Shown piece after piece: positions 6,753 to 31,085 of a stretch of DNA of 45,004 nt. This DNA comes from a virus: positions 1 through 45,004 of the IMG/VR virus record IMGVR_UViG_3300045988_058230. One strand, given 5' to 3'. The translations under genes and the position numbers were made by a program. Below the pieces are notes generated by a model. It ran no database searches. It worked only from the letters and a program-made list of their open reading frames with translations, and was not told where the DNA came from. How positions within the stretch are numbered: the stretch's first letter is position 1; every line of letters begins with the position of its first letter.

Positions 6753-6813
6753 ATTTTTTTGGAAGAAGCTCACATTGTGGGCTTCTTCTTTTTATACCCA
6801 AATTCCAATATAT

Positions 6814-6890
6814 GCCGCTTTAGCTCAGTCTGGCAGAGCACCGGACTTTTAATCCGGGGGCCGTGGGTTCAAGCCCCACAGGCGGCACCA
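6814..6890 (+). tRNA. tRNA-Lys (anticodon UUU), canonical, with encoded CCA.
   Basis: Acceptor GCCGCTT/AGGCGGC; D arm GCTC..GAGC; anticodon arm CCGGA-CTTTTAA-TCCGG; T arm GTGGG-TTCAAGC-CCCAC; 3' end ACCA. Confidence 0.9.
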
Positions 6891-6965
6891 CGCCGGCAGC
6901 ACGTCCGGAAAATAAACCTTATTGCCAAGCATGGCAGCCCGAGCAAGGGCAGAAAGGACTATCAC

Positions 6966-7556
6966 ATGGCACTCAAAAGAGCTGACATCCGCACGATTCT
7001 GGAGAACCCCGAAACCTCCAACGATGACAAGGTCGAAGCCATTCTGGACGCCCTGCACAAGGAGACGGACGGACTCAGAAATCAGCTGGATGAAGAAAAA
7101 ACAGCCCGCACACAGGCCGAGAAGGACCGTGATGCAGCCAACAGCGGCAAGCAGGCCGCTGAAAAGGCGCTGACCGACTACAAGGCCAAGCAGACAGCAG
7201 CAGCCAGCAAGGCGGCCAAGACCGCTGCGTTTAAGCAGCTGCTCAAGCAGGCGGGCGTGCTGGAAAAGTACATCGACGACATTGCCGACGACTCCAAGAA
7301 GGGCGACGAATTTGCCGCCGGTCTGGAACTGGACGCCGACGGCAAGGTGAAAGACGCCGAAAAGCAGCTTTCCAGCATCAAAAATACATGGGGCGGCAAA
7401 ATTGCCACCACCAAAACCACCGGCGCAAAGGTGGACAACCCTCCCACCAGTTACGCCGGGACTTCTCCCGAGGATTTCAAAAAGATGAGCCTTGATGACC
7501 GCATCAAGCTCAAGAACAGCAACCCTGAACTGTACCAGCAGCTCCGGGCAAAGTAA
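6966..7556 (+). CDS. Scaffolding protein (putative).
   Basis: ORF 6759..7556 was trimmed to the ATG at 6966, because the upstream part overlaps tRNA-Lys. The product is K/A/E/D-rich and coiled-coil-like, and sits directly upstream of the capsid gene. Confidence 0.7.
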   Translation: MALKRADIRTILENPETSNDDKVEAILDALHKETDGLRNQLDEEKTARTQAEKDRDAANSGKQAAEKALTDYKAKQTAAASKAAKTAAFKQLLKQAGVLEKYIDDIADDSKKGDEFAAGLELDADGKVKDAEKQLSSIKNTWGGKIATTKTTGAKVDNPPTSYAGTSPEDFKKMSLDDRIKLKNSNPELYQQLRAK

Positions 7557-11055: not shown

Positions 11056-13827
11056 TTGAGCGCCACCCTCGGGCTGGACGACAGCGCCTACCGGCAGGGC
11101 GTGGAAGAGGCGAAGTCTCAGACTAAGGCCGCTGTCTCCACCATGATGAAGGATTATAACCGGCTGTACAGTGAGGTCATTCACCTTACGGCAGCCTACC
11201 AGAAATCACGGAAAGAGACCGGGGAAACCTCCGAAAAAACTAAGGAATTTGCCCAGAAGCTGAAAGAAGCTCAGGCCCAACTCAATACCACGGCACAGGG
11301 GCTAAAGACTGCGGAAGGGTACATGAACAGCTTTGGGGACGCCGCATCGGGGTCCAGCAAGTCTCTGGCCGGTGCTATTGCACAAGGCACGGTCATGGCG
11401 AACGTCTTCTCGAAGCTCGGCTCCGCTGCACTCAGTGCCGCAGAGGGGTTCATCTCTTCCGGCATCGAGTACAACGCCCAGATCGAGAAATACACCACCG
11501 GCTTTACCAATATGCTGGGCAGCGCGGAAGCCGCACAGCAGGTCATGAGCCAGATCCAGGAAGATGCGGCAAAAACCCCGTTTGATGTCGAGTCCCTGAC
11601 AAAGGCAAACCAATACTTGATCTCTGCAGGCGAGAACGCTTCCTATGCCCGCAGTACCATCATGGCACTGGGTGACGCGGTCTCTGCGACCGGTGGCGGC
11701 AACGACGAGCTGAACCGCATGTCCCAGAACCTGCAGCAGATCGCCAACACCGGCAAGGCTACAACGGCCGATATCAAGCAGTTTGCTTATGCCGGCATCG
11801 ACGTGTATGGCATTCTGGCCGACTACACAGGCAAGTCCACCGCCGAAGTGCAAAACATGACCATCAGCTACGACCTTCTGACCCAGGCCCTGCAGGCAGC
11901 TTCCGAAGAAGGTGGACGCTACTACGGCAGCATGGACACCCAGAGCCAGACCATGAATGGCCGCGTGTCTACCCTGCAGGACAATGTAAAGCAGCTGGCG
12001 GGATTGCTGACCGGCGATTTGTCCAGCGGCGTCGGCGTGGTGATCTCCAATCTCAACGATCTTGTGGTCAAGGCACAAGAAGCCTACAAAACCGACGGCT
12101 GGATTGGTCTTGCAGGCGCAATTACCGGGTTGAGCGGCCCGATTTCGTCCGTCAAATCCTGGTTTGAGGGCTTTGCATCCAGTGCATCCACCTGGCTGGA
12201 CAAGCTGAGCTATAAGCTCAACCGCTTTCTGGGAAAAGCGGCTACGGCGGATTACGACACATACGAGGAGTATGCAGACGCAAACCTCCGCCAAAGAAAC
12301 CGTGACCGCTTACGGCAGCAAGCTCTTGCAGGCGTTGGCGTCAGCAACAAGAGCTGGTCCCAGCGTCAGGCGGAGTTGGCGGCAGCCAATGGCAGCGGTG
12401 GCAGCTCTATCGTCACCACAGGAGGCGGCAGCGGCTCTTCCGGCAGAAAAAAATCCGGCTCCAAGTCCACCACCGAAACGGTCATTTCGTCCATCTCCAG
12501 CACGGCTACCACCACCGCACAGAATGCGCTGGGTACCGTGACCACCAGCATCCAGACCCTTACCGAAAAGGTCAAGGACAGCTCCGGCAAGATCAAAGAC
12601 CGCATCACCGAGACCACCACCACGACCGGCAATGAGATGGTGAACGGCGTCGCCACTACCTTTAAGCAGGTCGAGACCAAAGTCAACGGCACGGTCACAA
12701 AGGTCACAAAGACCTATGACGACATGTCAAAAACGCTGCTGGGCACCTTTACCAACGTCTCGGAAACCACCTTTGACGGCATCACCACAAAGGTGCAGCA
12801 GGCGGTGGAAAAGTACGCGGACGGCAGCGAGCATATCAAGAAGACCGTCACAGAGACCGGCCAGCGCGTCGGCGAGAACGGCGCGGAGACCTACGAGAAG
12901 ATCATCACCTACATCGACGGCATTCAAGACAAGGTGACGGAGACCTCTACTCTCATCGACAAGAGCGTAAAGGGCACCCAGAGCCGCATTGACCAGCAGC
13001 TGAGCGAGGCTTCTGGCCAGCTGGATAAGGGCATTTTCGGGCTGGTAAAAAGCGCCTTTAGCGACGCCAAAAACGGCGACTGGGGCGGTCTAGCTCTGGA
13101 TTTTGTCAATCTGATCTGGGGCGAAGTATCGCAGGATCAGCGTGACGTGATCTCTAAGTGGCTTGCGGACGCGCTGACCGCGGTCAATGAGGGCTATTCG
13201 GGCGGTGGAATCAGCAAGGCGCTGGGGTCTATCCAGAGCATTTTCACAAACGGCATTACTGCCGGAGTGGATGGCGCCACTACGTCTGTAAAGGCGTTCT
13301 CTGAGATCGTGCAGGGCCTTGCAAGCTCCGGCGGCGTGGGCGGAGCACTAGGCAGCATCGTCCAGAGCTTTTCCGGCATGGCAGGCGGCATCACCTCTGC
13401 ACTGGGCGGCATCGTGTCCTTTGTGGCAGCGAACCCAGTCCTTGCCCTGATCCTGGGCGTGGGTGCTGCGGGCGCAGTCGCTGGCGGCATCGGCCTTGCC
13501 ATGTGGATGAACAAGAAGAACGACCAGCAGCCCGTCAGCCACTACCAGAGCCCCTTTGACAAGACCAGCGTGTATGACAGTCTGGGCACCTTCTCCACCC
13601 GCGCGGCCCTGCAGTACCGCGTTACCGGCCAGCAGTCCATTGTTGACCGGCAGACCAGCATTCTGGAACGCATCGAAGGGATGCTGAACGAGCATCTGCC
13701 AGACATCGGCAAGGGTCAGGTGGTCATGGATTCCGGTGAGCTGGTGGGCGTTATTTCGCCTAGGATGGCACAAAATGTTGACGCGCGCATTGGTGTGACC
13801 GTGACACGGAAAGCGAGGGGCGTGTAA
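11056..13827 (+). CDS. Tail tape measure protein.
   Basis: 923 aa, with a coiled-coil N-terminus, Thr/Gly-rich central segments and a C-terminal hydrophobic stretch. Its position after the chaperones is typical. Confidence 0.9.
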   Translation: MSATLGLDDSAYRQGVEEAKSQTKAAVSTMMKDYNRLYSEVIHLTAAYQKSRKETGETSEKTKEFAQKLKEAQAQLNTTAQGLKTAEGYMNSFGDAASGSSKSLAGAIAQGTVMANVFSKLGSAALSAAEGFISSGIEYNAQIEKYTTGFTNMLGSAEAAQQVMSQIQEDAAKTPFDVESLTKANQYLISAGENASYARSTIMALGDAVSATGGGNDELNRMSQNLQQIANTGKATTADIKQFAYAGIDVYGILADYTGKSTAEVQNMTISYDLLTQALQAASEEGGRYYGSMDTQSQTMNGRVSTLQDNVKQLAGLLTGDLSSGVGVVISNLNDLVVKAQEAYKTDGWIGLAGAITGLSGPISSVKSWFEGFASSASTWLDKLSYKLNRFLGKAATADYDTYEEYADANLRQRNRDRLRQQALAGVGVSNKSWSQRQAELAAANGSGGSSIVTTGGGSGSSGRKKSGSKSTTETVISSISSTATTTAQNALGTVTTSIQTLTEKVKDSSGKIKDRITETTTTTGNEMVNGVATTFKQVETKVNGTVTKVTKTYDDMSKTLLGTFTNVSETTFDGITTKVQQAVEKYADGSEHIKKTVTETGQRVGENGAETYEKIITYIDGIQDKVTETSTLIDKSVKGTQSRIDQQLSEASGQLDKGIFGLVKSAFSDAKNGDWGGLALDFVNLIWGEVSQDQRDVISKWLADALTAVNEGYSGGGISKALGSIQSIFTNGITAGVDGATTSVKAFSEIVQGLASSGGVGGALGSIVQSFSGMAGGITSALGGIVSFVAANPVLALILGVGAAGAVAGGIGLAMWMNKKNDQQPVSHYQSPFDKTSVYDSLGTFSTRAALQYRVTGQQSIVDRQTSILERIEGMLNEHLPDIGKGQVVMDSGELVGVISPRMAQNVDARIGVTVTRKARGV

Positions 13828-18290: not shown

Positions 18291-19088
18291 ATGGAAAAAC
18301 TTTTGGAATTTCTGGCGTGGCTGGTGAAGGTGCTCTTCGGCGGGGACAGCGAAAGCCCTGCGCCGGAAACACCCAGAGAGACTCCCGTTGAGGAGGCCGT
18401 CACCGGCTGGGAGGGCGACCCGCCATACCGGTACATCGACGTGAGCCGCTATCAGGGCAAAATCACCCTCGATGGATGGCGCGAGATCAAAGCGGCTGGC
18501 TACAAAGGCGTCATGCTTAAGACGGTGAGCACCAACCGAAAGCTCTCCAAGCGGGCAGATGGCCTGTACATCGACCCCACTTTTGAGGACAATTACAAAA
18601 ACGCCAAAGCGGCAGGGCTGGACGTGGGCGTCTACTACTACACCTACGCCACCAGCGAGGCGATGGCCGACGCAGAGCTTGCCCTGCTGGCTGACGCCCT
18701 GCGTGGCAAGACGCTGGAAATGCCTGTGGCAGTGGACGTGGAGGACAACAAATTCAGGGTTCTTGGCAAGCAGGCGCTGACCGACCTGACAGCCTACGCC
18801 CTGAAAAAGGTGGAGGACATGGGCTTTTATGCCCAGCTCTATACATACACCAGCTTTGCTAAGACGCGCCTGTATATGGGCGGCGCTGCTCTCAGCCCCT
18901 ACGACGTTTGGCTGGCCGACTACACCGGCAAGACGCCTGCCGTAACCTTTGCCTACAACGCTCACCAGCACACCAGTAAGGGCAGCGTGCCTGGTATCTC
19001 CGGCAACGTAGATCTCAACGTCACTACCCTCAACTACCCCCGTATCATCTGCAAGAAGGGTCTGACCCGTCTTCGGGAGGGCAAATGA
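18291..19088 (+). CDS. Endolysin, GH25 muramidase-like.
   Basis: Contains YIDVSRYQGKI and a later DVEDN-type acidic motif. It also has an N-terminal semi-hydrophobic segment, MEKLLEFLAWLVKVLFGG. Confidence 0.8.
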   Translation: MEKLLEFLAWLVKVLFGGDSESPAPETPRETPVEEAVTGWEGDPPYRYIDVSRYQGKITLDGWREIKAAGYKGVMLKTVSTNRKLSKRADGLYIDPTFEDNYKNAKAAGLDVGVYYYTYATSEAMADAELALLADALRGKTLEMPVAVDVEDNKFRVLGKQALTDLTAYALKKVEDMGFYAQLYTYTSFAKTRLYMGGAALSPYDVWLADYTGKTPAVTFAYNAHQHTSKGSVPGISGNVDLNVTTLNYPRIICKKGLTRLREGK

Positions 19089-19474
19089 CCGAAAAAGAAG
19101 CTCTCCTGTGGGTGCTTGGCATCCTGGGCAGCCTGTGCGCTGCTGCCATCACCATCGACAAGGTGCTGGAAATTATCCACAAGTACGTCAAAAAGGTGCA
19201 GGAGCCGGACAACGCGCAGAACAAGCGCATTGACACCATTGAAAAGCGGCTGGCTGCGGTAGAAACCGTTTCCACGCAGCACGCCGCGGCCCTTAGACGC
19301 GATTTGACGCGATTCGACGGCCTCGATGAAGAAATGCGTATCGTACTCGTTGGCGTACAAAATCTTTTGGATTCGCAGCTGTCCGGCAACAATCGCGAAT
19401 GTATGCAAAAAAGCAAATCCGATATTAACAACTACCTGCTGAAAGGAGTAACGAATCATGGAAGCAATGCTTAA
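19085..19474 (+). CDS. Membrane-anchored coiled-coil protein (holin- or lysis-accessory-like).
   Basis: Has an N-terminal transmembrane segment, LLWVLGILGSLCAAAITI, and overlaps both the lysin stop and the next gene. Confidence 0.5.
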   Translation: MTEKEALLWVLGILGSLCAAAITIDKVLEIIHKYVKKVQEPDNAQNKRIDTIEKRLAAVETVSTQHAAALRRDLTRFDGLDEEMRIVLVGVQNLLDSQLSGNNRECMQKSKSDINNYLLKGVTNHGSNA

Positions 19475-19790
19475 CTTTATCCCCGCACCCGTCGCCCTGG
19501 TTCTGATGGCCCTGGGCTTTATCTCTCTGGCCGTAGGTGCCATCCGGCTGGGTTACAAGCAGTACGTTAAGCGCTGGGCGCTGGAGCTCGTGACCCTGGC
19601 AGAAAACAGCATTATGGGCAGCGGCCAGGGAGCCAAGAAAAAGGCCCAGGTCTTTGCCGCGCTGCGCGGCGCACTGCCGGACTGGCTGAAGCCTTTCATC
19701 ACCGATGAAGTGCTGGACAGCGTAATCGAAAAGGCCGTCAGCATGATGAAAAAGGCACTGGAAAGCAAGAAGCCTACCATCAACCAGTAA
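19458..19790 (+). CDS. Holin (LL-H-like).
   Basis: 110 aa with an N-terminal transmembrane segment (PAPVALVLMALGFISLAVGAI) followed by an amphipathic basic domain. Confidence 0.6.
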   Translation: MEAMLNFIPAPVALVLMALGFISLAVGAIRLGYKQYVKRWALELVTLAENSIMGSGQGAKKKAQVFAALRGALPDWLKPFITDEVLDSVIEKAVSMMKKALESKKPTINQ

Positions 19791-19972: not shown

Positions 19973-21919
19973 ATGATCGAGCAAAGCGTATCTCTCGCAT
20001 CCAATGGCGTCGTCAAAGTGCCGGGCTATGAGCAGCTGGTGCGCTTTGGCTACACCAAGAACCGGGGCGTGTACCGCCTGCACGTCGATGCAACCGGCGA
20101 GTGGGAGGGCCTGACCATCCGGGCATTTTGGCATGTGCCTGGCGGAAAGGACCCGGCGTCCACGCTGGTGCAGAACGGCACCATGGACGTGCCCGCCAGC
20201 GTGACCGCCAAAATCGGCTCCGGCTGCGTGACCTTTGAGGGAACCGACGGCACCAAGACCGTCACCAGTGCAGACCTGCGGTATCGTGTCAGCGCCAACA
20301 GCGGCACAGAGGACGGCACAGAGCCGGAGCCTGGCACACCTGCCTGGCAGGAGCTGGTGGGGGCCGTGCACACCGATGCCACCGCCGCAGAGCAGGCAAA
20401 GACCGATGCACAGACGGCAGCCAGCGAAGCGGCCACCAGTGCGGGCAATGCGAATCAGAGCGCTCAGGAAGCCGCTGGCAGCCTGCATGAGCTGAAGAAC
20501 GGCATCGCAAGCGGTGACTTTAAGGGCGAGAAAGGTGACAAGGGCGACACTGGTCCCATCGGCCCGGTCGGCCCGCAGGGTGCGCAAGGCCCTCAAGGCC
20601 CCACAGGCGCTGCCGGAGCCACTGGTCCGCAGGGCGAGACTGGCCCTCGTGGCGAGCAGGGGCCGCAGGGCATTCAGGGTGAGCAGGGTCCACAAGGTGA
20701 ACAAGGCCCAGCAGGACCAGAGGGACCCCAGGGGCCTAAAGGCGACCCCGGACCGGCAGGTGCAGACGGCAAAGATGGCACACAAATTGATGATACCGCC
20801 GTGACCGACTCTGCCCCGTGGAGCAGCAAGCACCTTGTGGACATGCTCTGCCCGCCGCTGGACGAGACCGGGAACCCTGTTGTGTGCTATCCGGTGGCGG
20901 GATATCCGCTGGGATGTAAGGTGAGCTGGGAGCCGACGCAGGAAGGGAGCGGGGAGCCTAGCCCGGACAACATCCGGCCAATTTCCGGGCGGGATAGCGT
21001 GACGGTCGAGCGGTGCGGGGAGAACTTATTAGATGTTGCACAATGCAGAGCCGCAATACCCAGTGCAGCGTATGGCCTTACTGTAACTGTCGATGATACT
21101 GGACTTATAAGGGTATTTGGTACACCAAAAGTGAATAAGGACACCCCACGGGCTACCTTCAGAGTTTTATCTACAGACCAAGTGACACTGGCCAAATTGA
21201 CCAAAGGGTATAATGCAAAATTGTTTGTCTTGAAAGGTGTTGCAAATAACATAACTCGCATTCAAAGTGATAAGTCAATTGTATTACAGTCCCCACTATC
21301 ACCAAATACACCTGTAGATATACAGTTCAGATTTATGTACTATACAGGCAACACCGCCCCCACCATTTACACCCCTTACACCGGCCAAACCGCAACCCTG
21401 ACCCTGCCCCACACCATCTACGGCGGCACGGTGGACGCAGTGACGGGTGGGGGGAATGAGAGGTGGAAGCTGCTGACGCTGGACGGGACGGAATCGTGGA
21501 ATGCCGTTGGATCAGGTGATACTCTTTATTTTCAGAGCACTTCGATTTCCATTGGAACAAGAGTGCTGTCCAGGGACGATTATTGCACAACGTTCCCTAT
21601 TGCATCGGTTTCAAGTTCAAATACGGTACAAGGAGTAAGCGGGTGGAAAACATCCCTATATCTGCGTTGGTCTACATTTGCAGACGTTGCCGCTTTGAAA
21701 TCCTACCTCGCCGCCCAGTACGCCGCCGGAACCCCTGTGCAAGTCTGCTACAAGCTGACAGAGCCTGTACCGGTTACCGCCACAGGTGGCGTACCCATCA
21801 AGGCACTGAGCGGCGTTAACACCGTCTTGACCGATGCAGATAACGTGACTGTGACCGGCAGGGCTGACCCCATCAAACGCATTACTGATTTGGAAGCAGC
21901 GGTTGCTTCTATCAACTGA
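19973..21919 (+). CDS. Collagen-like repeat fibre protein.
   Basis: 648 aa with 28 uninterrupted G-X-Y triplets ([19 protein letters not shown]...GADGKDG), and a large C-terminal domain with AT-rich patches. Confidence 0.85.
20525..20779 (+). repeat. Collagen triple-helix coding repeat (G-X-Y, 28 triplets).
   Basis: Read from the translation of 19973..21919. Confidence 0.9.
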
Positions 21920-22167: not shown

Positions 22168-22407
22168 ATGGCAAGCACTACATACGAGCATTTTGTTGAC
22201 ACCAACAAAATGTACGCCGCACAAGAGCAATTTCGGCACGTCACGAAAATGGTCTGCGCACGTTTTCGTGACCTCACGAAAACATACCATCTCGGCAACG
22301 TCACCGTAATGGTTCGCAACGCTGGACAGCTGCCGCAGCCCTTCTGGCTCGGTGCTGCTTGTGGCGGCGGCTCGCGTAGTCTTTCCGCCAGCGTTGCAAG
22401 GGCTTAA
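22168..22407 (+). CDS. Hypothetical protein, possibly the 5' part of a frame-disrupted gene.
   Basis: ATG at 22168 behind AAGGAGG. The last ~25 codons look low-complexity, and it overlaps the next ORF by 56 nt in another frame. Confidence 0.4.
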   Translation: MASTTYEHFVDTNKMYAAQEQFRHVTKMVCARFRDLTKTYHLGNVTVMVRNAGQLPQPFWLGAACGGGSRSLSASVARA

Positions 22408-22585
22408 TGCAGAACAGATAAAAGCTGTGATAAAACGTGCGCCGCTTGGGAGGTATGACCGGAAAATCGCCCGGTTGCGGTACGTTGACCAGCTATGCCA
22501 AGCTGATATTGCAGCGCGTGTGCCGTATTGTCGGACATCAATCGGCAATAGGCTGAAAATTATTGACAAAATACTGAATGTGTGA
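22352..22585 (+). CDS. Sigma-70 region-4-like HTH protein.
   Basis: IARLRYVDQLCQADIAARVPYCRTSIGNRLKIIDKIL resembles region 4 of sigma/ArpU/RinA-type regulators. The start is GTG at 22352. Confidence 0.5.
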   Translation: MLLVAAARVVFPPALQGLNAEQIKAVIKRAPLGRYDRKIARLRYVDQLCQADIAARVPYCRTSIGNRLKIIDKILNV

Positions 22586-22711: not shown

Positions 22712-22750
22712 AAAACCCCCGGTGTTCCGTTTGGAGCATCGGGGTTTTTT
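22712..22750. terminator. Bidirectional terminator between convergent genes.
   Basis: AAAACCCCCGGTG...CATCGGGGTTTTTT: a stem flanked by an A run and a T run. Confidence 0.65.
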
Positions 22751-23450
22751 ACTTTTTCTTCAATTCCTCAAGCCTTCTGGAGAGTTCTTCTTCCCATCCT
22801 TCATGTTCTTTGAGGTACGGGGCGTAAATTATGCTCTCGGCTTCCTTTCGGGCTGCAGTGGCTTCTTCGATCGTGTCATAGCTGCCGAGATGATATTGCT
22901 TGCGTTGGAAATTGATATATGCACGCCATCGGCCGTGGCAGTCTTTACACACACCATTTGCGCCAGAAGTGGAATTTTTATTGATATGGCCTCCGACCCT
23001 TGTGCGAATCGACATGAGGGAAGAGCCGTCCGCGTAAGCGGTGCTGTGAATTGTCTCAGCTTTCTTTCCGATATCCCTGTTGCAATCTGCGCAATGCTGG
23101 ATCAGAGGGAGCCTTGTAAGTTTTACAGTAGTTTCCTTCCCGCACTTCGGGCAAATGGAACGGCACAGAAAGCAGCCTGACCTCTTTTCAGGTAAAACTT
23201 CCAATACTTTCCATCCGTTAATGCTCTGCCCCTCTTTTTTCTTTGCCTTTCGGAAAGCGTTCTCCGTCATGGATGGCTTTTGCCCTCGATTCGCGCAAGA
23301 CAGACAGCTGCGGCTTTTGCCAAGACGCAGGGAGCTGTCATACACGTCTTTTACCACTCCGCACTCACACTGGCATGTGTAGTAATGCGGCTTTTCAGAC
23401 GGCGCAAGTACCGTCCACTTTCCAAAATGCTTTCCAGTCAAATCTGCCAT
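22749..23450 (-). CDS. Zinc-ribbon plus AP2-domain DNA-binding protein (HNH/AP2 homing-endonuclease-like family).
   Basis: The N-terminus reads GKHFGKWTVL..YTCQCECG..SCLSC, there are several CxxC pairs, and the C-terminal AP2-like stretch reads GVCKDCHGRWRAYINFQRKQYHLGSYDTIEEATAARKEAE. Confidence 0.7.
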   Translation of the reverse strand: MADLTGKHFGKWTVLAPSEKPHYYTCQCECGVVKDVYDSSLRLGKSRSCLSCANRGQKPSMTENAFRKAKKKEGQSINGWKVLEVLPEKRSGCFLCRSICPKCGKETTVKLTRLPLIQHCADCNRDIGKKAETIHSTAYADGSSLMSIRTRVGGHINKNSTSGANGVCKDCHGRWRAYINFQRKQYHLGSYDTIEEATAARKEAESIIYAPYLKEHEGWEEELSRRLEELKKK

Positions 23451-23460
23451 AACATTTTCC

Positions 23461-23784
23461 TCAGATCAGCCCATAGTGCTCGGCCAGCAGGAAACGGACG
23501 TATTCCGGGCAGTCGCGCTCGCCCAAACACCACCCCTGCACCGTGCGGCGCGGGATTCCTGCCTGCTTTGCAAATGCGGTCTGCGACAGACCGGTACGGT
23601 CTACCAACTCCCGCATGGACAGGTGAGCAACGTCCCAGATGGTGGACAGCCTTTCTTTCTCGGCGTCCAGATCAACGCAACCAGAGGCAGCGTCCTCCAC
23701 GCTGAGGGTGACGCTGTTCAAAAAGATTTCTTTAACGGCCTTTGGGTCAGATGCCATGACGAAAAGTTCAGCTGCATTATACAT
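23461..23784 (-). CDS. HTH (XRE/Cro-like) DNA-binding protein.
   Basis: The C-terminal half reads MRELVDRTGLSQTAFAKQAGIPRRTVQGWCLGERDCPEYVRFLL. Confidence 0.65.
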   Translation of the reverse strand: MYNAAELFVMASDPKAVKEIFLNSVTLSVEDAASGCVDLDAEKERLSTIWDVAHLSMRELVDRTGLSQTAFAKQAGIPRRTVQGWCLGERDCPEYVRFLLAEHYGLI

Positions 23785-23852
23785 TGCAATTCTCCTTTTT
23801 TGATTGATAAAATCCCCGGGTGGTGTTCGCGCATCACTCGGGGCTTTTTTAT

Positions 23853-24026
23853 TTACTGCTCGTTCTCTTCAAACATTTTGAAATATTTCTCGTACTCTTC
23901 CCACTCTTCGGGGTCTGCCGGGTCATCACAAGCCGGGCTGCAATACTCTGCAATCCACTCTTCCTTGTCAGTGCTTCTCCAACCGCCATCGAACATTGCA
24001 GCTGCACTGCTGTAATAATCTTTCAT
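23853..24026 (-). CDS. Small highly acidic protein (57 aa), absent from the ORF track.
   Basis: GGAGGT lies 9 nt upstream of the ATG. Translation: MKDYYSSAAAMFDGGWRSTDKEEWIAEYCSPACDDPADPEEWEEYEKYFKMFEENEQ. A hairpin and A/T runs follow at about 23811..23850. Confidence 0.55.
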   Translation of the reverse strand: MKDYYSSAAAMFDGGWRSTDKEEWIAEYCSPACDDPADPEEWEEYEKYFKMFEENEQ

Positions 24027-24101: not shown

Positions 24102-24119
24102 GGCTTTTTGCAAAATTTT

Positions 24120-24134
24120 GTGCTCATTGAGCGC
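24120..24134. promoter_or_regulatory. Second, imperfect copy of the operator, O2 (GTGCTCATTGAGCGC).
   Basis: It shares the GCTCATTGAGCG core with O1, with centres 42 bp apart. Confidence 0.55.
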
Positions 24135-24241
24135 ATTTTTTTGCTTTGACAACTGGTGTGTTTTTTGCCCTTCGTTGTACCTTCGTTGTCTCTCCCGGAG
24201 GTTTAAAGAAGTACACTGGGCACAAAGGGAGGAGGTGCCAT

Positions 24242-24634
24242 GTGTGGCACAGGTTTAACCCGAACCCGCGTGGGAGCAGCGTCGGGGACTGCGTAGTGCG
24301 GGCGGTAGCTGCGGCCACCGGTCAGAGCTGGGAGCGGGCGTATATTGCGCTGGCGCTCACCGGCTACGCCCTCGGCGATATGCCCAGCGCCAACCGCACA
24401 TGGGGCGCGTACCTCCAAAAACGCGGGTTCAAGCGCTGTTTGGTGGAAGCAGACTGCACCACCTGTTACACCGTGGCAGATTTTGCCCGGGAGTACCCGC
24501 GCGGCGTGTATGTACTGGGCTGCTCCGGCCACGTCTTGACCGTGATCGACGGCGTGTGGTGGGACAGCTGGGACAGCGGCGCGGAATGCCCAATCTACTA
24601 CTGGTACAAGGAGAAAAACGATGCCGATTTATAA
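24242..24634 (+). CDS. Hypothetical protein with a papain-like Cys/His signature (putative cysteine peptidase/amidase).
   Basis: GTG at 24242 behind GGGAGGAGG. Motifs NPNPRGSSVGDCVVRAVAAATGQSW and CSGHVLTVIDG. 130 aa. Confidence 0.5.
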   Translation: MWHRFNPNPRGSSVGDCVVRAVAAATGQSWERAYIALALTGYALGDMPSANRTWGAYLQKRGFKRCLVEADCTTCYTVADFAREYPRGVYVLGCSGHVLTVIDGVWWDSWDSGAECPIYYWYKEKNDADL

Positions 24635-25064
24635 CGGATACCCGCAAGTGTATTACCCACAACAGCCGCAGGGGCAGCTTGAACAGCTCAGGGCAGCACA
24701 ATACCAGCCCCAGCCCGTCATGATGCCGACAATGCAGGGGCAGGCCGCACCGACTGACAGCGGCTTTATCTGGGTACAGGGCGAAGCAGCGGCCCGGGGC
24801 TATCTGGTCGCCAACGGGAGCCGGGTGCTTTTACTGGATGCTGATTCCGATACCTTTTATATCAAAGAGGTTGGGCAGGACGGCAGACCGTTCCCGCTCC
24901 GCATCTACGATTACAAGGAACGCACCAGCGGCCCCAAAGCGTCGATTGCAGCCACGCCAGCCGCAAGCGGGGAGTATGTCACCCGCAAGGAGTTCAACGC
25001 GCTGGCGGCAAAGCTGGCGGCGTTGGAAAAGCAAGAAGCACCTGAGCCGGAAAAGGAGGACTAA
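24621..25064 (+). CDS. Hypothetical protein with a Q/P-rich N-terminus and a beta-rich core.
   Basis: 147 aa. It begins MPIYNGYPQVYYPQQPQGQLEQLRAAQYQPQP and contains GFIWVQGEAAARGYLV..FYIKEVGQDGRPFPLRIYDY. Confidence 0.6.
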   Translation: MPIYNGYPQVYYPQQPQGQLEQLRAAQYQPQPVMMPTMQGQAAPTDSGFIWVQGEAAARGYLVANGSRVLLLDADSDTFYIKEVGQDGRPFPLRIYDYKERTSGPKASIAATPAASGEYVTRKEFNALAAKLAALEKQEAPEPEKED

Positions 25065-25067
25065 ACG

Positions 25068-25292
25068 ATGGGTAGCAGCTTGTTTGATTCGATGGGCCGA
25101 CAGGCCCAAAACCCCATTGGTGGGCAGTTTCAGCGGTTTATGGGCCAGATGCAGGGCAAGAACCCGCAGGAGATGATAAACCAGATGCTCACCTCCGGCC
25201 AGCTCTCACAGCAGCAGCTCAACGCCATTCAGCAGCGGGCACAGCAGATCGCTCCGATGCTCAACGGCATGAAAAATATGTTTGGATTCTGA
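25068..25292 (+). CDS. Hypothetical Q/M/N-rich small protein.
   Basis: 74 aa, MGSSLFDSMGRQAQNPIGGQFQRFMGQMQGKNPQEMINQML... Confidence 0.55.
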   Translation: MGSSLFDSMGRQAQNPIGGQFQRFMGQMQGKNPQEMINQMLTSGQLSQQQLNAIQQRAQQIAPMLNGMKNMFGF

Positions 25293-25345
25293 AATGCGGC
25301 CGCATTTAGAATAAATTCAAAAATCTAACGTAAAGGAGTAAAACT

Positions 25346-26185
25346 ATGTCTCTTTCTTCTGATAGCACGGTTCTGACCATGCCGGTACAGCCCGCCAACG
25401 GCTACAGCAACGGCTTCAACGGCTGGGGCGGCGACTGGATGGGCTGGATCGTCCTCTTCCTGATTTTCGGCATGTTCGGCTGGGGCGGCATGGGCGGCTT
25501 TGGCTGGGGCGGCGGCATGGGCGGCGCTTCGCCTTATATGACCAGCGCAGTGACCCAGGCAGACCTGCAGCGCGGCTTCGACAACCAGAGCGTCATGAAC
25601 AAGCTGAACGGGCTGGAAAGCGGCCTGTGTGATGGCTTCTATGCCATGAACACCGGGATGCTTCAGGGGTTCAACGGCGTGCAGCAGGGCCTGAACGGCG
25701 TCACCAACGCCATGCAGCAGGGCTTCAACAGCACCAACGTTGCGCTGATGCAGGGGCAGAATGCTCTGGCTACACAGCTGGCAGACTGCTGCTGCAAGAC
25801 CCAGACCGCGATCCAGGGAGTCAACTACAATTTGGCCACGCAGGAGTGCGATACCCGGAACCAGATGCAGCAGGGCTTCTGCGCAACGCAGAACACCATG
25901 AACAACAACACCCGGGACATCATCGAGAATCAGAACAGCAACACCCGCGCGGTGCTCGACTTCCTGACCAATGATAAGATCGCCACCCTGCAGAGCGAGA
26001 ACAACGAGCTTCGCCGGGCTGCTTCTCAGGATCGCCAGAGCGCGTTCCTGACCACCGCGATGAACGCGCAGACCAACCAGATCATCGGGACTCTGCAGCA
26101 GAAAGCTCCCGTGCCTGCCTATCAGGTGCCCAACCCCAACGCCATTTACTATGGTTGTGGGACCGGCTGCGGCAGCTGCGCATAA
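25346..26185 (+). CDS. Membrane-anchored Q/N-rich repeat protein with a Cys-rich C-terminus.
   Basis: AAAGGAG RBS. The Gly/Trp-rich hydrophobic segment reads GWGGDWMGWIVLFLIFGMFGWGGMGGFGWGGGMGG. It has repeated QQGFN/LQGFNG motifs, a CCC triplet and the end motif YYGCGTGCGSCA. Confidence 0.7.
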   Translation: MSLSSDSTVLTMPVQPANGYSNGFNGWGGDWMGWIVLFLIFGMFGWGGMGGFGWGGGMGGASPYMTSAVTQADLQRGFDNQSVMNKLNGLESGLCDGFYAMNTGMLQGFNGVQQGLNGVTNAMQQGFNSTNVALMQGQNALATQLADCCCKTQTAIQGVNYNLATQECDTRNQMQQGFCATQNTMNNNTRDIIENQNSNTRAVLDFLTNDKIATLQSENNELRRAASQDRQSAFLTTAMNAQTNQIIGTLQQKAPVPAYQVPNPNAIYYGCGTGCGSCA

Positions 26186-26252
26186 ATGAATCACGGCAAC
26201 TGACTGCAAATTGTAGTCTGTTCAGCCCCTGAGCTGATTTTGCAAACCAGAG

Positions 26253-26279
26253 CGCCGGGGCAAAAGTCCCGGCGTTTTT
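26253..26279 (+). terminator. Rho-independent terminator.
   Basis: Stem CGCCGGG/CCCGGCG, loop GCAAAAGT, then TTTTT. Confidence 0.75.
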
Positions 26280-26299
26280 CTATGAAAGGAGCCGATAAA

Positions 26300-26722
26300 A
26301 TGGCTGAATTTAGCAACTCCAACACCGTCACTGTGGAGGCTGGTGAAAACCTCCCCCTGACCGAGACCGCAGTGAAAGCCCCCGCCTGCATCATGCACCG
26401 TGAGGGCAGCGGCCTCGTGACCCTGCGCGGTCTGACCAATCAATGCAAGGCGCGCTTCAAGGTAAGCTTTGGCGGCAATGTCGCCATTCCCACCGGCGGC
26501 ACCGTTGGGCCCGTTTCCGTGGCGCTGGCTGTCGGCGGTGAGTCGCTGACCAGTGCGACAGCCATTGTCACCCCGGCGGCAGTCGAAAATTACTTCAATG
26601 TTTTCGTGGCTGCGTTCATCGAGGTACCGCGCGGCTGTTGCGTGACCGTGGCGGTTAAAAACACCAGTGCGCAGGCAGTCAGCATTGCAAACAGCAATTT
26701 GATCGTTGAGCGGGTAGCATAA
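26300..26722 (+). CDS. BclA-C-terminal / ExsF-like (C1q/TNF-type jelly-roll) domain protein (putative).
   Basis: ATG at 26300 behind AAAGGAG; 140 aa. The alternating beta-strand pattern is NSNTVTVEAGENL..GLVTLRG..ARFKVSFGG..VSVALAVGGESL..CVTVAVKNTS..SNLIVERVA. Confidence 0.45.
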   Translation: MAEFSNSNTVTVEAGENLPLTETAVKAPACIMHREGSGLVTLRGLTNQCKARFKVSFGGNVAIPTGGTVGPVSVALAVGGESLTSATAIVTPAAVENYFNVFVAAFIEVPRGCCVTVAVKNTSAQAVSIANSNLIVERVA

Positions 26723-26738
26723 GAAAGGAGATAAAGTC

Positions 26739-27140
26739 ATGCTGGATAAACTGAATCATCTGAAGGATGAGATGTGCGACGAGCTCATGGAGCTGACCGA
26801 CAAAAAGAACCGCTCCCCGGGTGATATCGAGATGATCGGCGAGATCGTGGATATCATTCTGGACATCCACCGCATCGAGGACTACTGCGAGGGCGGCGAG
26901 TACAGCCGTGCGGGCGAGTGGGAAGCTGACATGCGCGGGACCTTTGGCCATGATGCCGGAAACGGTTACAACCGGGGCAACAGCTACGCCAACCGAGGCC
27001 GTCACTATGTGCGCGGGCACTACTCCCGCACGGATGGCCGTGAGCGCATGATCTCTGACATTGAGGAAATGATGCAGGACGCCACCGGCGCAGAGCGTGA
27101 CGCCTACAAGCGGGCAGCTGACATCTTGCGCAACGCATAA
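26739..27140 (+). CDS. Hypothetical protein with helical ends and a central G/R/Y/N-rich segment.
   Basis: 133 aa behind AAGGAG. The central segment reads GNGYNRGNSYANRGRHYVRGHYSRTDGRER. Confidence 0.6.
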   Translation: MLDKLNHLKDEMCDELMELTDKKNRSPGDIEMIGEIVDIILDIHRIEDYCEGGEYSRAGEWEADMRGTFGHDAGNGYNRGNSYANRGRHYVRGHYSRTDGRERMISDIEEMMQDATGAERDAYKRAADILRNA

Positions 27141-27158
27141 GGGAGGAGGGCGGCAGGC

Positions 27159-27488
27159 ATGGACATTGACGAGATCAATGAGCACATCCGAAAGCTCAAG
27201 TGTGAGGAAACCAGCTGGCAGAGCGTGGAAAAGCTTGCCGCCCTCTGCACTGTACGGGACGAGCTGGAAGAAGCACACGCGCCTGAAACGCAAATCCAGG
27301 CACTGCCGCCCGTGACTTATGCGGCGGCGTACTCCACGGCAGCGGAACCGCAAAGCGACTTTGTGGCGGCTGCCAGCTCTGTTCCTTTCGGTGGCCTGAT
27401 GCAGGTGCTTGACGAGCACATGAAGGCAATAAAGCTGGTTTACCCGAAAGAGTATGAGCTAGTAATGCGGAAGATAAGCGACTTGTAA
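27159..27488 (+). CDS. Hypothetical protein.
   Basis: 109 aa behind GGGAGGAGGG. It is the last gene before attP. Confidence 0.55.
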   Translation: MDIDEINEHIRKLKCEETSWQSVEKLAALCTVRDELEEAHAPETQIQALPPVTYAAAYSTAAEPQSDFVAAASSVPFGGLMQVLDEHMKAIKLVYPKEYELVMRKISDL

Positions 27489-27554: not shown

Positions 27555-27602
27555 GAAAGCTAACAAATTGATAATTATTCACTTTAAAACGCTAAATAAA
27601 TT

Positions 27603-27650
27603 TGATTTGTAATCAGTGGGTTGCAGGTTCAACTCCTGTCACCAGCTCCA
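27603..27650 (+). other. attP core: a copy of the 3' half of a tRNA-Thr(UGU) gene (anticodon loop through ACCA-like end).
   Basis: TGA-TTTGTAA-TCAGT-GGGTT-GCAGG-TTCAACT-CCTGT-CACCAGC-T-CCA. There is no matching 5' acceptor strand (GCTGGTG) upstream. The site lies 113 bp from the integrase stop. Confidence 0.7.
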
Positions 27651-27658
27651 AAAAATAA

Positions 27659-27700
27659 ACGCACGAACGATAAAAATGAATCGTCCGTGCGTTTTTCTTT
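27659..27700 (+). terminator. Rho-independent terminator just after the tRNA-like attP core.
   Basis: ACGCACGAACGAT...ATCGTCCGTGCGT stem followed by TTTTTCTTTTT. Confidence 0.7.
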
Positions 27701-27762: not shown

Positions 27763-28896
27763 TCAGTACTTCATCTTCTGCATTTCCTGCAACAAATAGG
27801 CTGGATCGTTGTGGGACACGTACTTGTTTGCCGTGGTGGAGAAATTTTTGTGCCCAAGGATGGCCTGCACGGCGGTCTTTTCTAAGCCGCACTCCACCAT
27901 CTTGCTACTGGCCGTGTGGCGCAGCGTGTGTGGATGCACCCCCTCTATGTGGCATTCCTGCATCAACGCCCGGAACTTTGTAGCCACGTTGCGCTTATCC
28001 AGCTTTGTGCCGGTCTTGGATGGAATCAGCCACTCACAGCCGCTATCAAGCATCCAAAAGGCAATGATCTTGTAAATGGGCTCAAGGATGGGGATGATGC
28101 GGTTCTTGCCTGCTTCTGTCTTTTCACCGCCCTGCATGTACCGCTCTTTCAGGTGCACATCCTCGCAGCGCATGGAAAGCAGCTCGTCAATGCGCATACC
28201 GGTATAAAGCAGCACCATTGCAATTTGCGCCGTCTGCCCAAACTTCGGGTCATTTTGTCGGCTGCTGATCCGCTCGATCTCTTGGGCGGTCAGGGTGCGC
28301 TCTTCTTTTCCTGTAGCCGCCGGGAGCTGCAGTAGCATGGCGTAATTTTTGTTTATAATGTCCTGCGCCATTGCCCACTCGCAGATCTGGCTGAAAAGTG
28401 TGCGCTGCTTTTCGCAGGAGCTGCGGGAAAGTCCCTTTTCCACCATTGCGTCAATGACCTGTTGATAATCTGCCGCTTTTAAGTCCCGCAATTGTCGGTC
28501 GTATAGCGGAACAGCCTTTGCATAGGCCAGCTCGTACCCCTTTTGCATGTCCGTGCTGAGCTTGTCAAATTTGGGCTGCGCTTTCCATTTGGCATAGGCA
28601 TCCGCAAAGGTGCATTTCAGACGCGCTGCGGGCGTGTTCTGGGCGTTGTAAGCGTCCAGCGCTTGTACGGCTTCGCCTGCCGTTTCAAACGTCCCCAGAA
28701 CGTCCCTTTGGGCTGTAAGCGCCACATACGGTCTTGCCCGCGTCCCACTCAGTTTATACACGCTGCCGCTGCCCTTGGGACGGCGGCGCTTTTTTCTTTG
28801 CTGCGGGGCGGCTTCCGGCTGCTTCTTCCCGCACCACGGACAAAAAGAAGCACCATCCGGGATCTCTTTCCTGCAGCATGGTCTCACGCATTTCAT
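27763..28896 (-). CDS. int: Tyrosine integrase with an N-terminal zinc ribbon.
   Basis: 377 aa. It begins MKCVRPCCRKEIPDGASFCPWCGKK and carries catalytic-type motifs TGMRIDELL, HTLRHTASS, LGH and NKYVSH (Tyr). Confidence 0.9.
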   Translation of the reverse strand: MKCVRPCCRKEIPDGASFCPWCGKKQPEAAPQQRKKRRRPKGSGSVYKLSGTRARPYVALTAQRDVLGTFETAGEAVQALDAYNAQNTPAARLKCTFADAYAKWKAQPKFDKLSTDMQKGYELAYAKAVPLYDRQLRDLKAADYQQVIDAMVEKGLSRSSCEKQRTLFSQICEWAMAQDIINKNYAMLLQLPAATGKEERTLTAQEIERISSRQNDPKFGQTAQIAMVLLYTGMRIDELLSMRCEDVHLKERYMQGGEKTEAGKNRIIPILEPIYKIIAFWMLDSGCEWLIPSKTGTKLDKRNVATKFRALMQECHIEGVHPHTLRHTASSKMVECGLEKTAVQAILGHKNFSTTANKYVSHNDPAYLLQEMQKMKY

Positions 28897-29988: not shown

Positions 29989-30013
29989 AAATCCACGTTT
30001 TCAATGGATTTTT
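29989..30013 (+). terminator. Rho-independent terminator.
   Basis: Stem AAATCCA/TGGATTT followed by a T run. Confidence 0.6.
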
Positions 30014-30093
30014 CCACCGAAAACAGTACACGAATGGGGATTGACGGCCACAACCAACGGTTTTATAATATGGTTGTGAACATGTTTTACACG

Positions 30094-30846
30094 TTAGTTT
30101 TTGTGGTAAATGACCTCAAGTCCGTGATCTGGATGATACGACCATGTAACGGTCACTTTGTCAAAAGCTTCCTTTTGCCTTCCGTCAATGGCACGAGTGC
30201 TCACAATTTCTTCGTAAAGCCAATCGGGAAGCCCTAGCGATTCATTAGCTTCTCTAACATGCATAAGCCCAATCGCTTTATTAGTTGTATTGTCCTTCAG
30301 GTCGTATGGATTTGTATCAATTGACAGGTATGAGCCATCGTCCGCAAGCGTTATGGTGATGTCGGCATATACATCATGCAACGTCCGAAAAACGCTATCG
30401 CTTGTTGTGCCACAATCGGTAACATCCCACATACACTTGCCTATTGAGGTCTCTATTTTTTGATTTTTTTCATTAAATGTGATTTTTTGGCTGATAAGAA
30501 TAATCGGAGCTCCATCACCGGCTGTCTGCTGATATTTTCCTTTAAAAGTGAAAGTTTGATTTGCAAATGCGGTTCTCGCGTGCTCATACTGTACACTTTT
30601 TACAGCGGCATAAAAACGTTTCCCACTTTCATCTATGACGGAAAAGCATTTGTAATCGGTTTCAGGAAAAGGATAAACGGAATAATCCTCCGCGGTATAA
30701 GTGTAAAAATAGTCGAAATCGGTTCGTCCGGAAAACTCGACTGTTTGACCCACTTTGTACTGGTTCCCATCTGCAAAAGCCGTCATGGCAAAAGGAATGG
30801 ACAAAGCCGCAGTCAAACCCAATGCAAGAAACGTTCTTCTTTTCAT
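30094..30846 (-). CDS. Secreted protein of unknown function (AT-rich moron).
   Basis: ATG at 30846 behind GAGGTGG. The signal-peptide-like N-terminus is MKRRTFLALGLTAALSIPFAMTAFADG. Hairpins flank the gene at 30049..30078 and about 30876..30900. Confidence 0.7.
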   Translation of the reverse strand: MKRRTFLALGLTAALSIPFAMTAFADGNQYKVGQTVEFSGRTDFDYFYTYTAEDYSVYPFPETDYKCFSVIDESGKRFYAAVKSVQYEHARTAFANQTFTFKGKYQQTAGDGAPIILISQKITFNEKNQKIETSIGKCMWDVTDCGTTSDSVFRTLHDVYADITITLADDGSYLSIDTNPYDLKDNTTNKAIGLMHVREANESLGLPDWLYEEIVSTRAIDGRQKEAFDKVTVTWSYHPDHGLEVIYHKN

Positions 30847-31085
30847 AATAACCACCTCATATACAAAAATAGGCAGCCAACCAGCTGCCTAAAAAGCTAA
30901 ATTATCAAGGAAAATGCCAAAGGGGGAAAATAAAGTGCAAGAAAATAGCACAAAGTTTGCAAAATGTGATACAATGGAAGAAAAGTGCCGCCTCAAAGCT
31001 TTATTTTCTTCTCTGTCGGCACAGGAAAAACAAGAGGTTCTTTCCTATGCGGAAAGCCTGCTCAACAGCAGAAAGGAGTAAATCT

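Follow-up and report, generated by a model that had tools for sequence, protein, structure and literature searches.

We analysed a 45,004 bp stretch of viral DNA (IMG/VR virus record IMGVR_UViG_3300045988_058230, positions 1 to 45,004; the whole stretch is called "the window" below), which is the complete genome of a temperate siphovirus. Seven consecutive + strand genes at positions 24242–27488, here named P1 to P7, form together with a probable small helix-turn-helix (HTH) regulator, which precedes them in relatives, a single conserved accessory operon that moves horizontally among temperate siphoviruses of gut Clostridia. Its products include three low-complexity proteins, a Cys-rich membrane anchor and two proteins of predicted fold, one TNF-like and the other a papain-like enzyme; no counterpart of this multi-protein unit has been described. 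For each of P4 and P5 the search reached its ceiling at more than 7,900 non-redundant homologues, a number that places the module among the commoner uncharacterised gene sets in prophages of human-gut Clostridia. We tentatively propose, as a possibility well short of an even chance, that its products come together as a Cys-rich protein assembly at the cytoplasmic face of the membrane, with the membrane-inserted P4 as its nucleus.

Conservation of the seven-gene module

A first-pass annotation, made from the letters of the window, had singled out seven open reading frames (ORFs) as a cassette of compositionally extreme proteins; all seven are present where it placed them, and residue counts agree with the compositions it gave (a Q/P/Y-rich N-terminus in P2, a Q/M-rich P3, a Gly/Trp-rich and then Q/N-rich P4, and a G/R/Y-rich core in P6). 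P1 to P5 match PHROG families with E-values from 1e-19 to 2e-62 and all seven have syntenic homologues, so these are real genes rather than chance ORFs. The PHROG families are all annotated "unknown function" and no sequence homology to any known virion component was found, in keeping with the earlier statement that none of the seven has a recognisable structural role. Searches of Pfam, NCBIfam, PADLOC and PDB sequences with all seven proteins, both as single sequences and as profiles, gave nothing significant, and no paper on this module came up in literature searches on the PHROG identifiers, on BclA-like phage proteins and on spore coat or exosporium genes carried by phages. None of the module proteins has a signal peptide or membrane segment except for the hydrophobic segment of P4 (below).

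Related loci were collected by a P4-profile scan that kept one genome per species (80 loci), to which two annotated phages were added, giving 82 loci in all; these are designated by L numbers where they need to be told apart. The order P1-P2-P3-P4-P5-P6-P7 recurs in about 45 of the 82. Gene-neighbourhood conservation across relatives had been suggested as a check on the cassette, and the order proved to be fixed. P4 is present in all 82 loci, P1 in 48, P2 and P5 in 43 each, P6 in 34, P3 in 25 and P7 in 13, counts that are affected by the truncation of many of the loci. The median pairwise identity of the module proteins among loci is 36–50%, and in the phage collection P2 and P6 are confined to module-bearing genomes. 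The cluster could also be read as no system at all, a set of unrelated small morons that travel together, and in line with this P1 is found alone in many unrelated phages, P1, P3 or P7 is absent from some loci and the P5 slot is replaceable; however, the gene order is fixed over deep divergence, P2 and P6 keep to module carriers, natural P1-P2 fusions exist and an RNA element is tied to the P4/P5 junction (all below), and we consider such chance companionship extremely improbable.

The hosts of the related loci are nearly all Lachnospiraceae, Oscillospiraceae, Ruminococcus, Acutalibacteraceae, Eubacterium, Blautia, Dorea, Enterocloster, Subdoligranulum and Christensenella. A few loci lie in metagenome-assembled genomes (MAGs) of Bacteroidota or Collinsella, which are probably mis-binned. 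The module is also carried by Butyrivibrio virus Ceridwen, where it follows the lysis genes; this phage has no integrase, only lytic growth has been observed, and it is apparently virulent (PMC7372960). Cultured carriers are available, in the form of Lachnospira intestinalis CLA-AA-H89B, Enterocloster hominis CLA-SR-H021, Lachnospiraceae bacterium JLR.KK009 and, as a phage, Ceridwen growing on Butyrivibrio DSM 3071.

P1 is a predicted papain-like enzyme

P1 (130 aa, + strand, 24242–24634, with a GTG start; phrog_3754, E = 1.5e-30) had been called Cys/His peptidase-like from its sequence, and that description agrees with what we find: its invariant residues are N6/N8, D16-C17, R20, H97 and D108, with C17, H97 and D108 constant in alignments of 44 and of 76 sequences, and in an AlphaFold2 model with a predicted local distance difference test score (pLDDT) of 93.9 C17 lies where a helix begins, with H97 and D108 on adjacent strands, a papain-like topology. 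Foldseek returned weak matches, all of them papain-like (Josephin-2, AvrPphB, Tae4, TssM and PaTox), with E-values of 0.19–1.2 and a best template modelling (TM) score of 0.41. On its modelled structure P1 is a papain-like Cys-His-Asp enzyme, not assigned to any defined family, for which peptidase, amidase, deubiquitinase-like and transglutaminase chemistry are not distinguishable. It shares with papain-like clan CA enzymes (Josephin, YopT/AvrPphB and Tae4) the Cys at a helix N-terminus and the His and Asp on neighbouring strands, and its family size of about 125 aa is like that of the small clan CA enzymes; its strand Asp is followed by S-W, which gives a D-S-W motif where papain has N-S-W. 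It differs from them in that the structural matches are weak (E = 0.19, TM score 0.41 at best) and sequence matches are absent, none having been found in Pfam, NCBIfam or the PDB. Assignment to peptidase family C39, whose triad has a similar spacing, was considered and rejected, as 44 family members gave no Pfam match at E-values up to 1 and no C39 enzyme is among the top Foldseek matches.

The P1 family is large (3,413 clusters in a 50%-identity library), and P1 occurs alone, without the rest of the module, in Bacillus Tsamsa-like phages, Geobacillus phage GBK2, Myxococcus phage Mx1 and Prevotella Lak megaphages. Two metagenomic proteins, P0457 and P0499, are natural in-frame fusions of P1 to P2, which argues that P1 and P2 work together. 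P0467 and P0510, also metagenomic, each consist of two P1 units in tandem; in P0510 these are preceded by a hydrophobic segment at the N-terminus. No Pfam domains were found in the long P1 homologues.

P5 is a predicted TNF/C1q-like jelly roll

P5 (140 aa, + strand, 26300–26722 from an ATG start, within a longer ORF that opens at 26240; phrog_20016, E = 2e-60) is a stand-alone domain with an invariant Cys-Cys pair (residues 113–114) and no signal peptide. The best AlphaFold2 model is an all-beta jelly roll with a mean pLDDT of 89.6, the other four of the five models scoring 51–76 and the model being built on a shallow alignment (84–97% identity). Foldseek searching of the PDB gave 85 matches at E ≤ 1e-3, the top ones with TM scores of 0.6–0.75 and E-values of 2e-6 to 1e-4; these are EDA-A1, the F-BclA C-terminal domain (CTD), 4-1BBL, ExsF, ExsFA, BxpB and BclA. 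We conclude from the model that P5 is a TNF/C1q-like jelly roll, and the "BclA-C/ExsF-like" label of the first-pass annotation is thereby borne out at the level of fold, since the BclA CTD, F-BclA, ExsF/ExsFA, BxpB and TNF ligands all match at TM scores of 0.6–0.75. In BFVD, a set of predicted viral structures, Foldseek matches P5 to stand-alone proteins of 130–143 aa encoded in MAGs of gut phages, some of which go by the name "BclA protein", and to knobs found on tail-fibre and collagen-like proteins. Stand-alone P5-like proteins are found in contigs labelled siphovirus, podovirus and myovirus.

A 91%-identical homologue of P5 carries the name "BclA" in GenBank. We rejected membership of P5 in the BclA family, since its 140 aa are all beta, it has no GXX repeats and it has no Pfam Collagen or BclA match; without collagen repeats or a BclA match, the GenBank name is fold-based at best. 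With the Bacillus exosporium proteins ExsFA/BxpB and the BclA CTD, P5 has in common the fold (TM scores 0.66–0.75, E = 1e-5 to 5e-5), and with ExsFA/BxpB also the layout of a stand-alone domain of about 140–170 aa without a signal peptide; as ExsF lies beside ExsY/CotY, P5 lies beside Cys-rich partners. It differs from BclA and ExsF in having no detectable sequence homology to them, no collagen-like region and no BclA N-terminal targeting motif, and in being phage-encoded and present also in hosts without known exosporia, at least one of which is non-sporulating.

These likenesses bear on the idea that the module serves the spore. In its specific form, the genes would be expressed in the mother cell, P4 would sit on the outer forespore membrane, and P5 and the Q/Y/Cys-rich proteins would add a coat- or exosporium-like layer that changes the surface properties of the spore. 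The best PDB matches of P5 do include four Bacillus exosporium proteins (BclA, F-BclA, ExsF/ExsFA and BxpB). Coat and exosporium proteins generally have no signal peptides and are Cys-, Tyr- or Gln-rich, and the module is coat-like in composition and free of export signals. A GerE-type HTH protein precedes the module in L091, the hosts are nearly all Clostridia, and one lineage of carriers has the sporulation gene sigG as its integration site (below). Butyrivibrio fibrisolvens, the host of Ceridwen, is not known to form spores, however, and the module is found in MAGs of further taxa described as non-sporulating, such as Subdoligranulum and Christensenella, which argues against a role restricted to spores. 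Moreover, none of the proteins belongs by sequence to any spore protein family, the visible -10 boxes are TATAAT-like (sigma-A type) rather than of sigma-E or sigma-K type, and TNF-like domains are widespread in phages generally. The resemblance to GerQ, CotY/ExsY and BclA that had been suggested earlier did not survive, as a Pfam scan of the seven proteins (E up to 1) and NCBIfam gave no sequence match. We consider the specific spore-layer role improbable. The spore-surface idea is weakened by the carriers in non-sporulating hosts and by the sigma-A-like -10 boxes; what keeps it alive is a fold like that of exosporium proteins, together with the coat-like composition, the lack of export signals, a neighbour of GerE type and hosts among the Clostridia.

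A wider version of the same idea would make the module an exosporium-like kit, in which P4 is the anchor, P5 an ExsF/BclA-type trimer, P2, P3 and P6 a Gln/Tyr/Cys-rich matrix and P1 a papain- or transglutaminase-like cross-linker, together giving a cross-linked surface layer. The kit would be put to use in the sporulating mother cell or else in the dying infected cell, under the control of a new terminator-type RNA switch between P4 and P5; we hold this, too, to be improbable. If true, such a kit would alter spore or particle properties that are relevant to transmission from host to host.

The fold of P5 also suggests a virion accessory module, with P5 as a fibre knob or capsid decoration trimer, P4, P2 and P3 as fibre, ejection or assembly factors, P1 as a maturation protease and the cysteines stabilising the released particle. 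In BFVD and the PDB the TNF-like fold is typically found in the knobs of tail fibres, whiskers and spikes, the module runs in the same direction as the late genes and in L001, L002 and L091 comes straight after the lysis genes, a gene for a collagen-like fibre protein is nearby in the window, virion proteins likewise have no signal peptides, and the apparently virulent Ceridwen has retained the module. Yet the module is distant from the structural genes and in serine-integrase phages lies between the integrase and the early genes, stand-alone P5-like proteins span contigs of all three tail morphologies, P5 is among the best-conserved parts of the module (unlike receptor-binding proteins), P4 has a membrane-type segment, and P1 to P7 have no similarity to structural PHROGs. 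A virion role of this kind seems to us rather unlikely.

In at least 11 loci the P5 slot holds an unrelated Cys-rich beta protein of 131–134 aa with at least five invariant Cys residues (L010:3273–3674, L044:6492–6893, L007:9109–9510 and eight more loci). It is strongly conserved (MACKPVCKLCD...NRCC...TACGIRTRTRYS...GTAPAAP) and no Pfam or PDB relative of it was found. That it is a diverged P5 was rejected, hhalign giving a probability below 1%.

P4 and the low-complexity proteins

P4 (279 aa, + strand, 25346–26185, ending in CGTGCGSCA; phrog_16490, E = 2e-62) starts with an acidic tail and a single hydrophobic segment rich in Gly and Trp; a helical Q/N-rich region follows, in which a CCC motif is invariant, and then come a P.PAY.VPNP motif and a C-terminal tail rich in Cys and Gly. 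Residues 26–70 contain 16 G and 5 W, the remainder has 27 Q and 27 N, and the whole protein has 9 Cys. Across relatives the C-terminal tails contain 7–17 Cys in runs of the CGC..GCGC type, and the type of tail does not follow the type of P5. K and R residues average 0.5 in the N-terminal tail versus 2.1 in the 45 residues after the hydrophobic segment, a distribution by which a cytoplasmic C-terminal domain is weakly favoured.

Some crAss-like phage proteins annotated "viral fibre/spike" resemble P4 weakly (27% identity, in the Q/N-rich part only). They were rejected as a second occurrence of the module, as their neighbours are not homologous to P2 or P5, and judging from the sequences we treat the similarity as compositional or very distant. 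One of these genes, in the crAss-like phage cr109_1 (L083:5728–6711), is annotated "outer capsid protein/viral fibre" and contains two in-frame stops under translation table 11, which fits stop-codon recoding in that phage; it comes after a holin gene, a LysB/FtsL-like gene and a "sigma factor/ubiquitin-like" gene.

P2 (147 aa, + strand, 24621–25064; phrog_21718, E = 2e-24) begins, in the alignment, with a disordered stretch rich in Q, P and Y; a small beta domain that is conserved (IWVQGE...FYIK...G.P) follows, and an amphipathic helix ends the protein. P3 (74 aa, + strand, 25068–25292; phrog_22984, E = 1.4e-19) is Q/M/N-rich (22% Q and 12% M), is probably a helical peptide, and in each of its 25 loci lies between P2 and P4. 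P6 (133 aa, + strand, 26739–27140) is delimited by alignment and has no family match; helical ends flank a G/R/Y/S-rich low-complexity core (…SYA.RG.HYVRGHYSR…), and in all 34 loci that have it P6 is 3′ of the P5 slot. P7 (109 aa, + strand, 27159–27488) is likewise known from the alignment, has conserved N- and C-terminal helices (…MDELM.TL…PR.Y..VMRKI), is the last gene of the module in each of its 13 loci, and has no family match in Pfam, PHROG or NCBIfam.

A structured RNA element between P4 and P5

The 115-nt gap between P4 and P5 folds as three hairpins (z = -3.8), and by covariance modelling and folding we delimit a structured RNA element there (+ strand, 26180–26300). Hairpin 1 lies at about 26202–26218, hairpin 2 at about 26223–26236, and hairpin 3, a GC-rich terminator hairpin at 26249–26278, is followed by a U-run that leads straight into the ribosome binding site (RBS) of P5. 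Relatives have the same three-hairpin architecture with differing stem sequences. A covariance model built from 21 seed instances (R1) finds 29 matches in 1.15 Mb of fetched sequence, all of them directly after P4 and on the coding strand, and these include loci outside the seed and loci in which the next gene is not P5. In hairpins 2 and 3 together 90.6% of alignment cells are paired, versus 76% after shuffling and 40–54% when the partner strand is slid, and 13 of 16 pairs show compensatory changes, in an alignment that was fitted to the model and is thereby biased in its favour. For hairpin 3 on its own, 94.8% of cells are paired, compensatory changes are seen in 9 of 10 pairs, and the U-run is visible in the alignment. 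Hairpin 1 is formed in 28 of the 29 instances, with unrelated stem sequences. The terminator that the first-pass annotation had placed before P5 is thus conserved across relatives, with covariation.

The element is absent where P5 abuts P4 (gaps of 12–32 nt) and in the loci with the alternative P5-slot protein. From its sequence we read it as a putative intra-operon terminator or attenuator that would set or gate expression of P5 to P7. By-eye alternative pairings between hairpins 2 and 3 were inconsistent across subtypes, and no antiterminator was found among them. Like terminator-based leader and attenuator RNAs it has a GC-rich hairpin and U-run before an RBS, with conserved hairpins upstream; unlike them it lies inside an operon, and it has no match in Rfam. 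It is a new candidate cis-regulatory motif.

Position of the module at the prophage edge

The cassette had been described as lying between the tail/lysis genes and attP, in the classic position of lysogenic-conversion genes. It does adjoin attP, but it is about 4.4 kb away from the lysis genes: between the holin gene (+ strand, 19458–19790) and P1 are the collagen-like fibre gene, small ORFs, the HTH gene and three - strand genes. The attP core (+ strand, 27584–27651) is a copy of the 3′ part of a tRNA gene, in which 27584–27639 match positions 10–63 of the Rfam tRNA model (E = 7e-4) and the sequence runs on to ...CCAGCTCCA. Between the cassette with attP and the integrase lies a bidirectional terminator (27657–27694) with a 15-bp hairpin and T-runs on both strands, and the tyrosine integrase (- strand, 27763–28896; Pfam Phage_integrase, E = 4.5e-31) starts the lysogeny module.

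In tyrosine-integrase phages (the window, L002 and L091) the order is lysis genes, the HTH gene in some, module, attP and integrase. In serine-integrase phages it is integrase, attP and module (L086, L087 and L092). A Lachnospira lineage that has a serine recombinase reads recombinase, attP, module, antirepressor and early genes when free; once integrated, its module forms the outermost part of the prophage. A prophage-edge location between late genes and attP is seen in the window, L002, L091, L085 and L090. As the edge position is kept with both types of integrase, the constant feature is the prophage edge at attP and not the lysis genes.

A role in conversion or exclusion would agree with the place at the prophage edge and with the terminators on either side; a role in the virion or in release would agree with the orientation shared with the late genes, the fibre-knob fold and the persistence of the module in a lytic phage. 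Known attP-adjacent conversion cassettes or morons are PVL and sak-scn-chp of Staphylococcus aureus prophages and bor/lom of lambda. The module resembles these in lying between late genes and attP, in being bracketed by terminators and in having a -10-like box in about half of the loci; they are patchy, host-specific and have secreted products, whereas the module is a seven-gene linkage group across families of Clostridia and has no export signals. Of the earlier claim of a lysogenic-conversion locus, the position at attP therefore stands, but the deep conservation of the linkage group is unlike the patchy cargo usual at conversion sites.

Superinfection exclusion (Sie) or abortive infection, with P4 as membrane effector or entry blocker, P1 as protease effector and P5 as sensor, would suit a place beside attP and the immunity region, which is typical for such genes. 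Many Sie proteins are small and membrane-anchored, and the layout 5′ of P1, where about half of the loci have a terminator and then a -10-like box, is moron-like. P4 shares with Sie2009 and the Ltp exclusion protein a phage origin, a membrane anchor and a gene close to the lysogeny module. A Sie system consists of one small gene, though, and P4 differs in being always encoded with P2, P3, P5 and P6 and in having no sequence similarity to Sie proteins. PADLOC gave only compositional matches of P4 to the ZorA coiled coil (E = 0.04–0.1), so that the defence-system alternative raised in the first-pass annotation found no PADLOC support from any of the seven proteins; seven-gene synteny kept down to 35–40% identity and an abundance that saturates the search are unlike the patchy turnover of defence cargo, and most of the parts are low-complexity or structural-looking rather than enzymatic. 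We regard an exclusion or abortive-infection role as unlikely.

The module is directly 3′ of the holin or endolysin gene in many relatives, which would suit a lysis-coupled cargo that is released or activated by holin and endolysin, whether as an accessory to lysis or as a product that is bacteriocin-like or forms a matrix. The weak P4-like matches in crAss-like phages adjoin holin and LysB-like genes, and P1 weakly resembles small papain-like or NlpC/P60-like hydrolases such as Tae4. The crAss similarity is, however, low and limited to the Q/N-rich part of P4 amid non-homologous neighbours, the module is away from the lysis genes in serine-integrase phages, and Pfam scans found no toxin-like or cell-wall-binding domain; we consider a lysis cargo very unlikely.

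In the sigG lineage mentioned above, a Lachnospira-type phage carrying P2 to P5 is integrated inside the gene for sporulation sigma factor G. The host sigG fragments (L085:8398–8886 and L090:6473–6964, and also in L004, L052 and L053) lie about 1–1.8 kb upstream of P4, and the fragment beside the module corresponds to SigG residues 98–257 (NCBIfam, 3e-78). The serine recombinase gene is just upstream of the module in the free form and at the opposite prophage end once integrated. Such an insertion recalls the skin element, but in a different gene, sigG.

Proposed function

In the proposed Cys-rich assembly, P4 would insert into the membrane through its single Gly/Trp-rich segment, and its Q/N-rich helical stalk, CCC motif and Cys/Gly-rich tail would make it the nucleating anchor. 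P5, presumably a trimeric jelly roll of TNF/C1q type, would be a building block or cap, its place being filled elsewhere by the alternative Cys-rich beta protein. The low-complexity proteins P2 and P3 and P6 (Q/Y/P-rich and R/G/Y-rich) would be adaptors or matrix, and P1 would have P2 as its substrate or its partner, and would either process P2 or join Gln-rich partners by cross-links. The three-hairpin terminator element would set or gate the ratio of P1–P4 to P5–P7. The benefit would probably be an altered host envelope or spore surface, or an effect on the release of progeny. Should the module change the surface of cells or spores, the sensitivity to phages or the stability of virions, it would matter for the persistence and transmission of dominant gut Firmicutes and of their phages.

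Several points weigh against this proposal. The interaction, localisation and expression of P1 to P7, and with them the physical assembly, the substrate of P1 and the time of expression, are deduced from sequence and predicted structure, and the topology argument from the charges of P4 is weak. The cytoplasm is reducing, so cross-linking through Cys there would need metal binding, or else would have to await oxidation once the cell has lysed or within the layers of a spore. About half of the loci have the module right up against upstream late or lysis genes and show no obvious promoter, which makes its expression in the lysogen uncertain. The TNF-like fold is in viruses mostly that of a fibre knob and fits a virion role equally well, and P1, being solitary in unrelated phages, may have an independent role.

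A probable upstream regulator and the leader

The small HTH protein is p77 (77 aa, + strand, 22352–22585), of the sigma-70 region 4 or LuxR-GerE type, which matches phrog_36 "transcriptional regulator" weakly and sigma-factor models also weakly. Homologues of p77 lie immediately 5′ of P1 in six loci, and in L091 its slot holds a 64-aa HTH protein of GerE/LuxR type (with a Pfam GerE match); p77 is a probable regulator belonging to the module. In relatives p77 is directly 5′ of the module, and in the window a trio of - strand genes (22749–24026) is inserted between them. The trio consists of an AP2/HNH endonuclease gene, an XRE regulator gene and a 57-aa ORF; the endonuclease is homing-endonuclease-like, the 57-aa ORF is acidic, and the trio has its own TTGACA/TATACT promoter. 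In Dulem virus 33, an endonuclease gene is instead inserted between P3 and P4.

The leader of the cassette (+ strand, 24119–24241) contains a terminator-like hairpin at 24119–24135 with a T-run, TTGACA at 24146–24151, two tandem copies of CCTTCGTTGT (24169–24178 and 24180–24189) and the P1 RBS GGGAGGAGG at 24227–24235. The exact form of CCTTCGTTGT occurs nowhere else in the window and is not common to other promoters of the phage, so there is no evidence for co-regulation with the late operon. Before P1, about half of the related loci show direct repeats peculiar to each phage, a TATAAT-like box and a terminator hairpin with its T-run, and in the other half a small ORF abuts P1. An extra ORF of about 45–50 aa with the motif Y..RLIAAG....A......Y abuts P1 at L002:7077–7226 and in L081, L026, L021, L009 and L001, and has no counterpart in the window. 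A -10-like box follows the terminator before P1 in about 19–20 of 41 loci, a frequency no higher than that upstream of internal genes; because these counts fail to separate the region upstream of P1 from internal regions, we dropped the claim of a proven own promoter for the module, and from the sequence an independent promoter before P1 is plausible.

Other features of the genome

The late region is encoded on the + strand and contains the terminase gene (912–2159), a 923-aa ORF (11056–13827) that sits at the position of the tape-measure gene (an assignment made by position only), genes for Dit, Tal and then a DUF6273/Hoc-like protein between that ORF and the endolysin gene, the GH25 endolysin gene itself (18291–19088) and, between it and the holin gene, a gene for a 129-aa coiled-coil protein. 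The 648-aa collagen-like fibre protein is encoded after the holin gene and not among the tail genes (+ strand, 19973–21919); it has G-X-Y repeats at about residues 185–270, and the local GC content is 66%. Small ORFs including p77 follow, then two terminators, and after these the three - strand genes. On the other side of the module and attP, a CI-like repressor gene (- strand) comes after the integrase gene, and the early genes then follow.

Near the left end of the window, 252–387 gives an Rfam tRNA-like match (46 bits, 136 nt for a 71-position model) that ARAGORN does not call; it carries an insertion of about 65 nt, an intron or long arm, and adjoins a tRNA-Trp gene (57–130). A tRNA-Lys gene (6814–6890) lies inside the head region. 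It is held by one of two stretches of low GC content, 6001–7000 and 30001–31000 (about 41–42%, versus about 55% for the genome), which may be recently acquired DNA.

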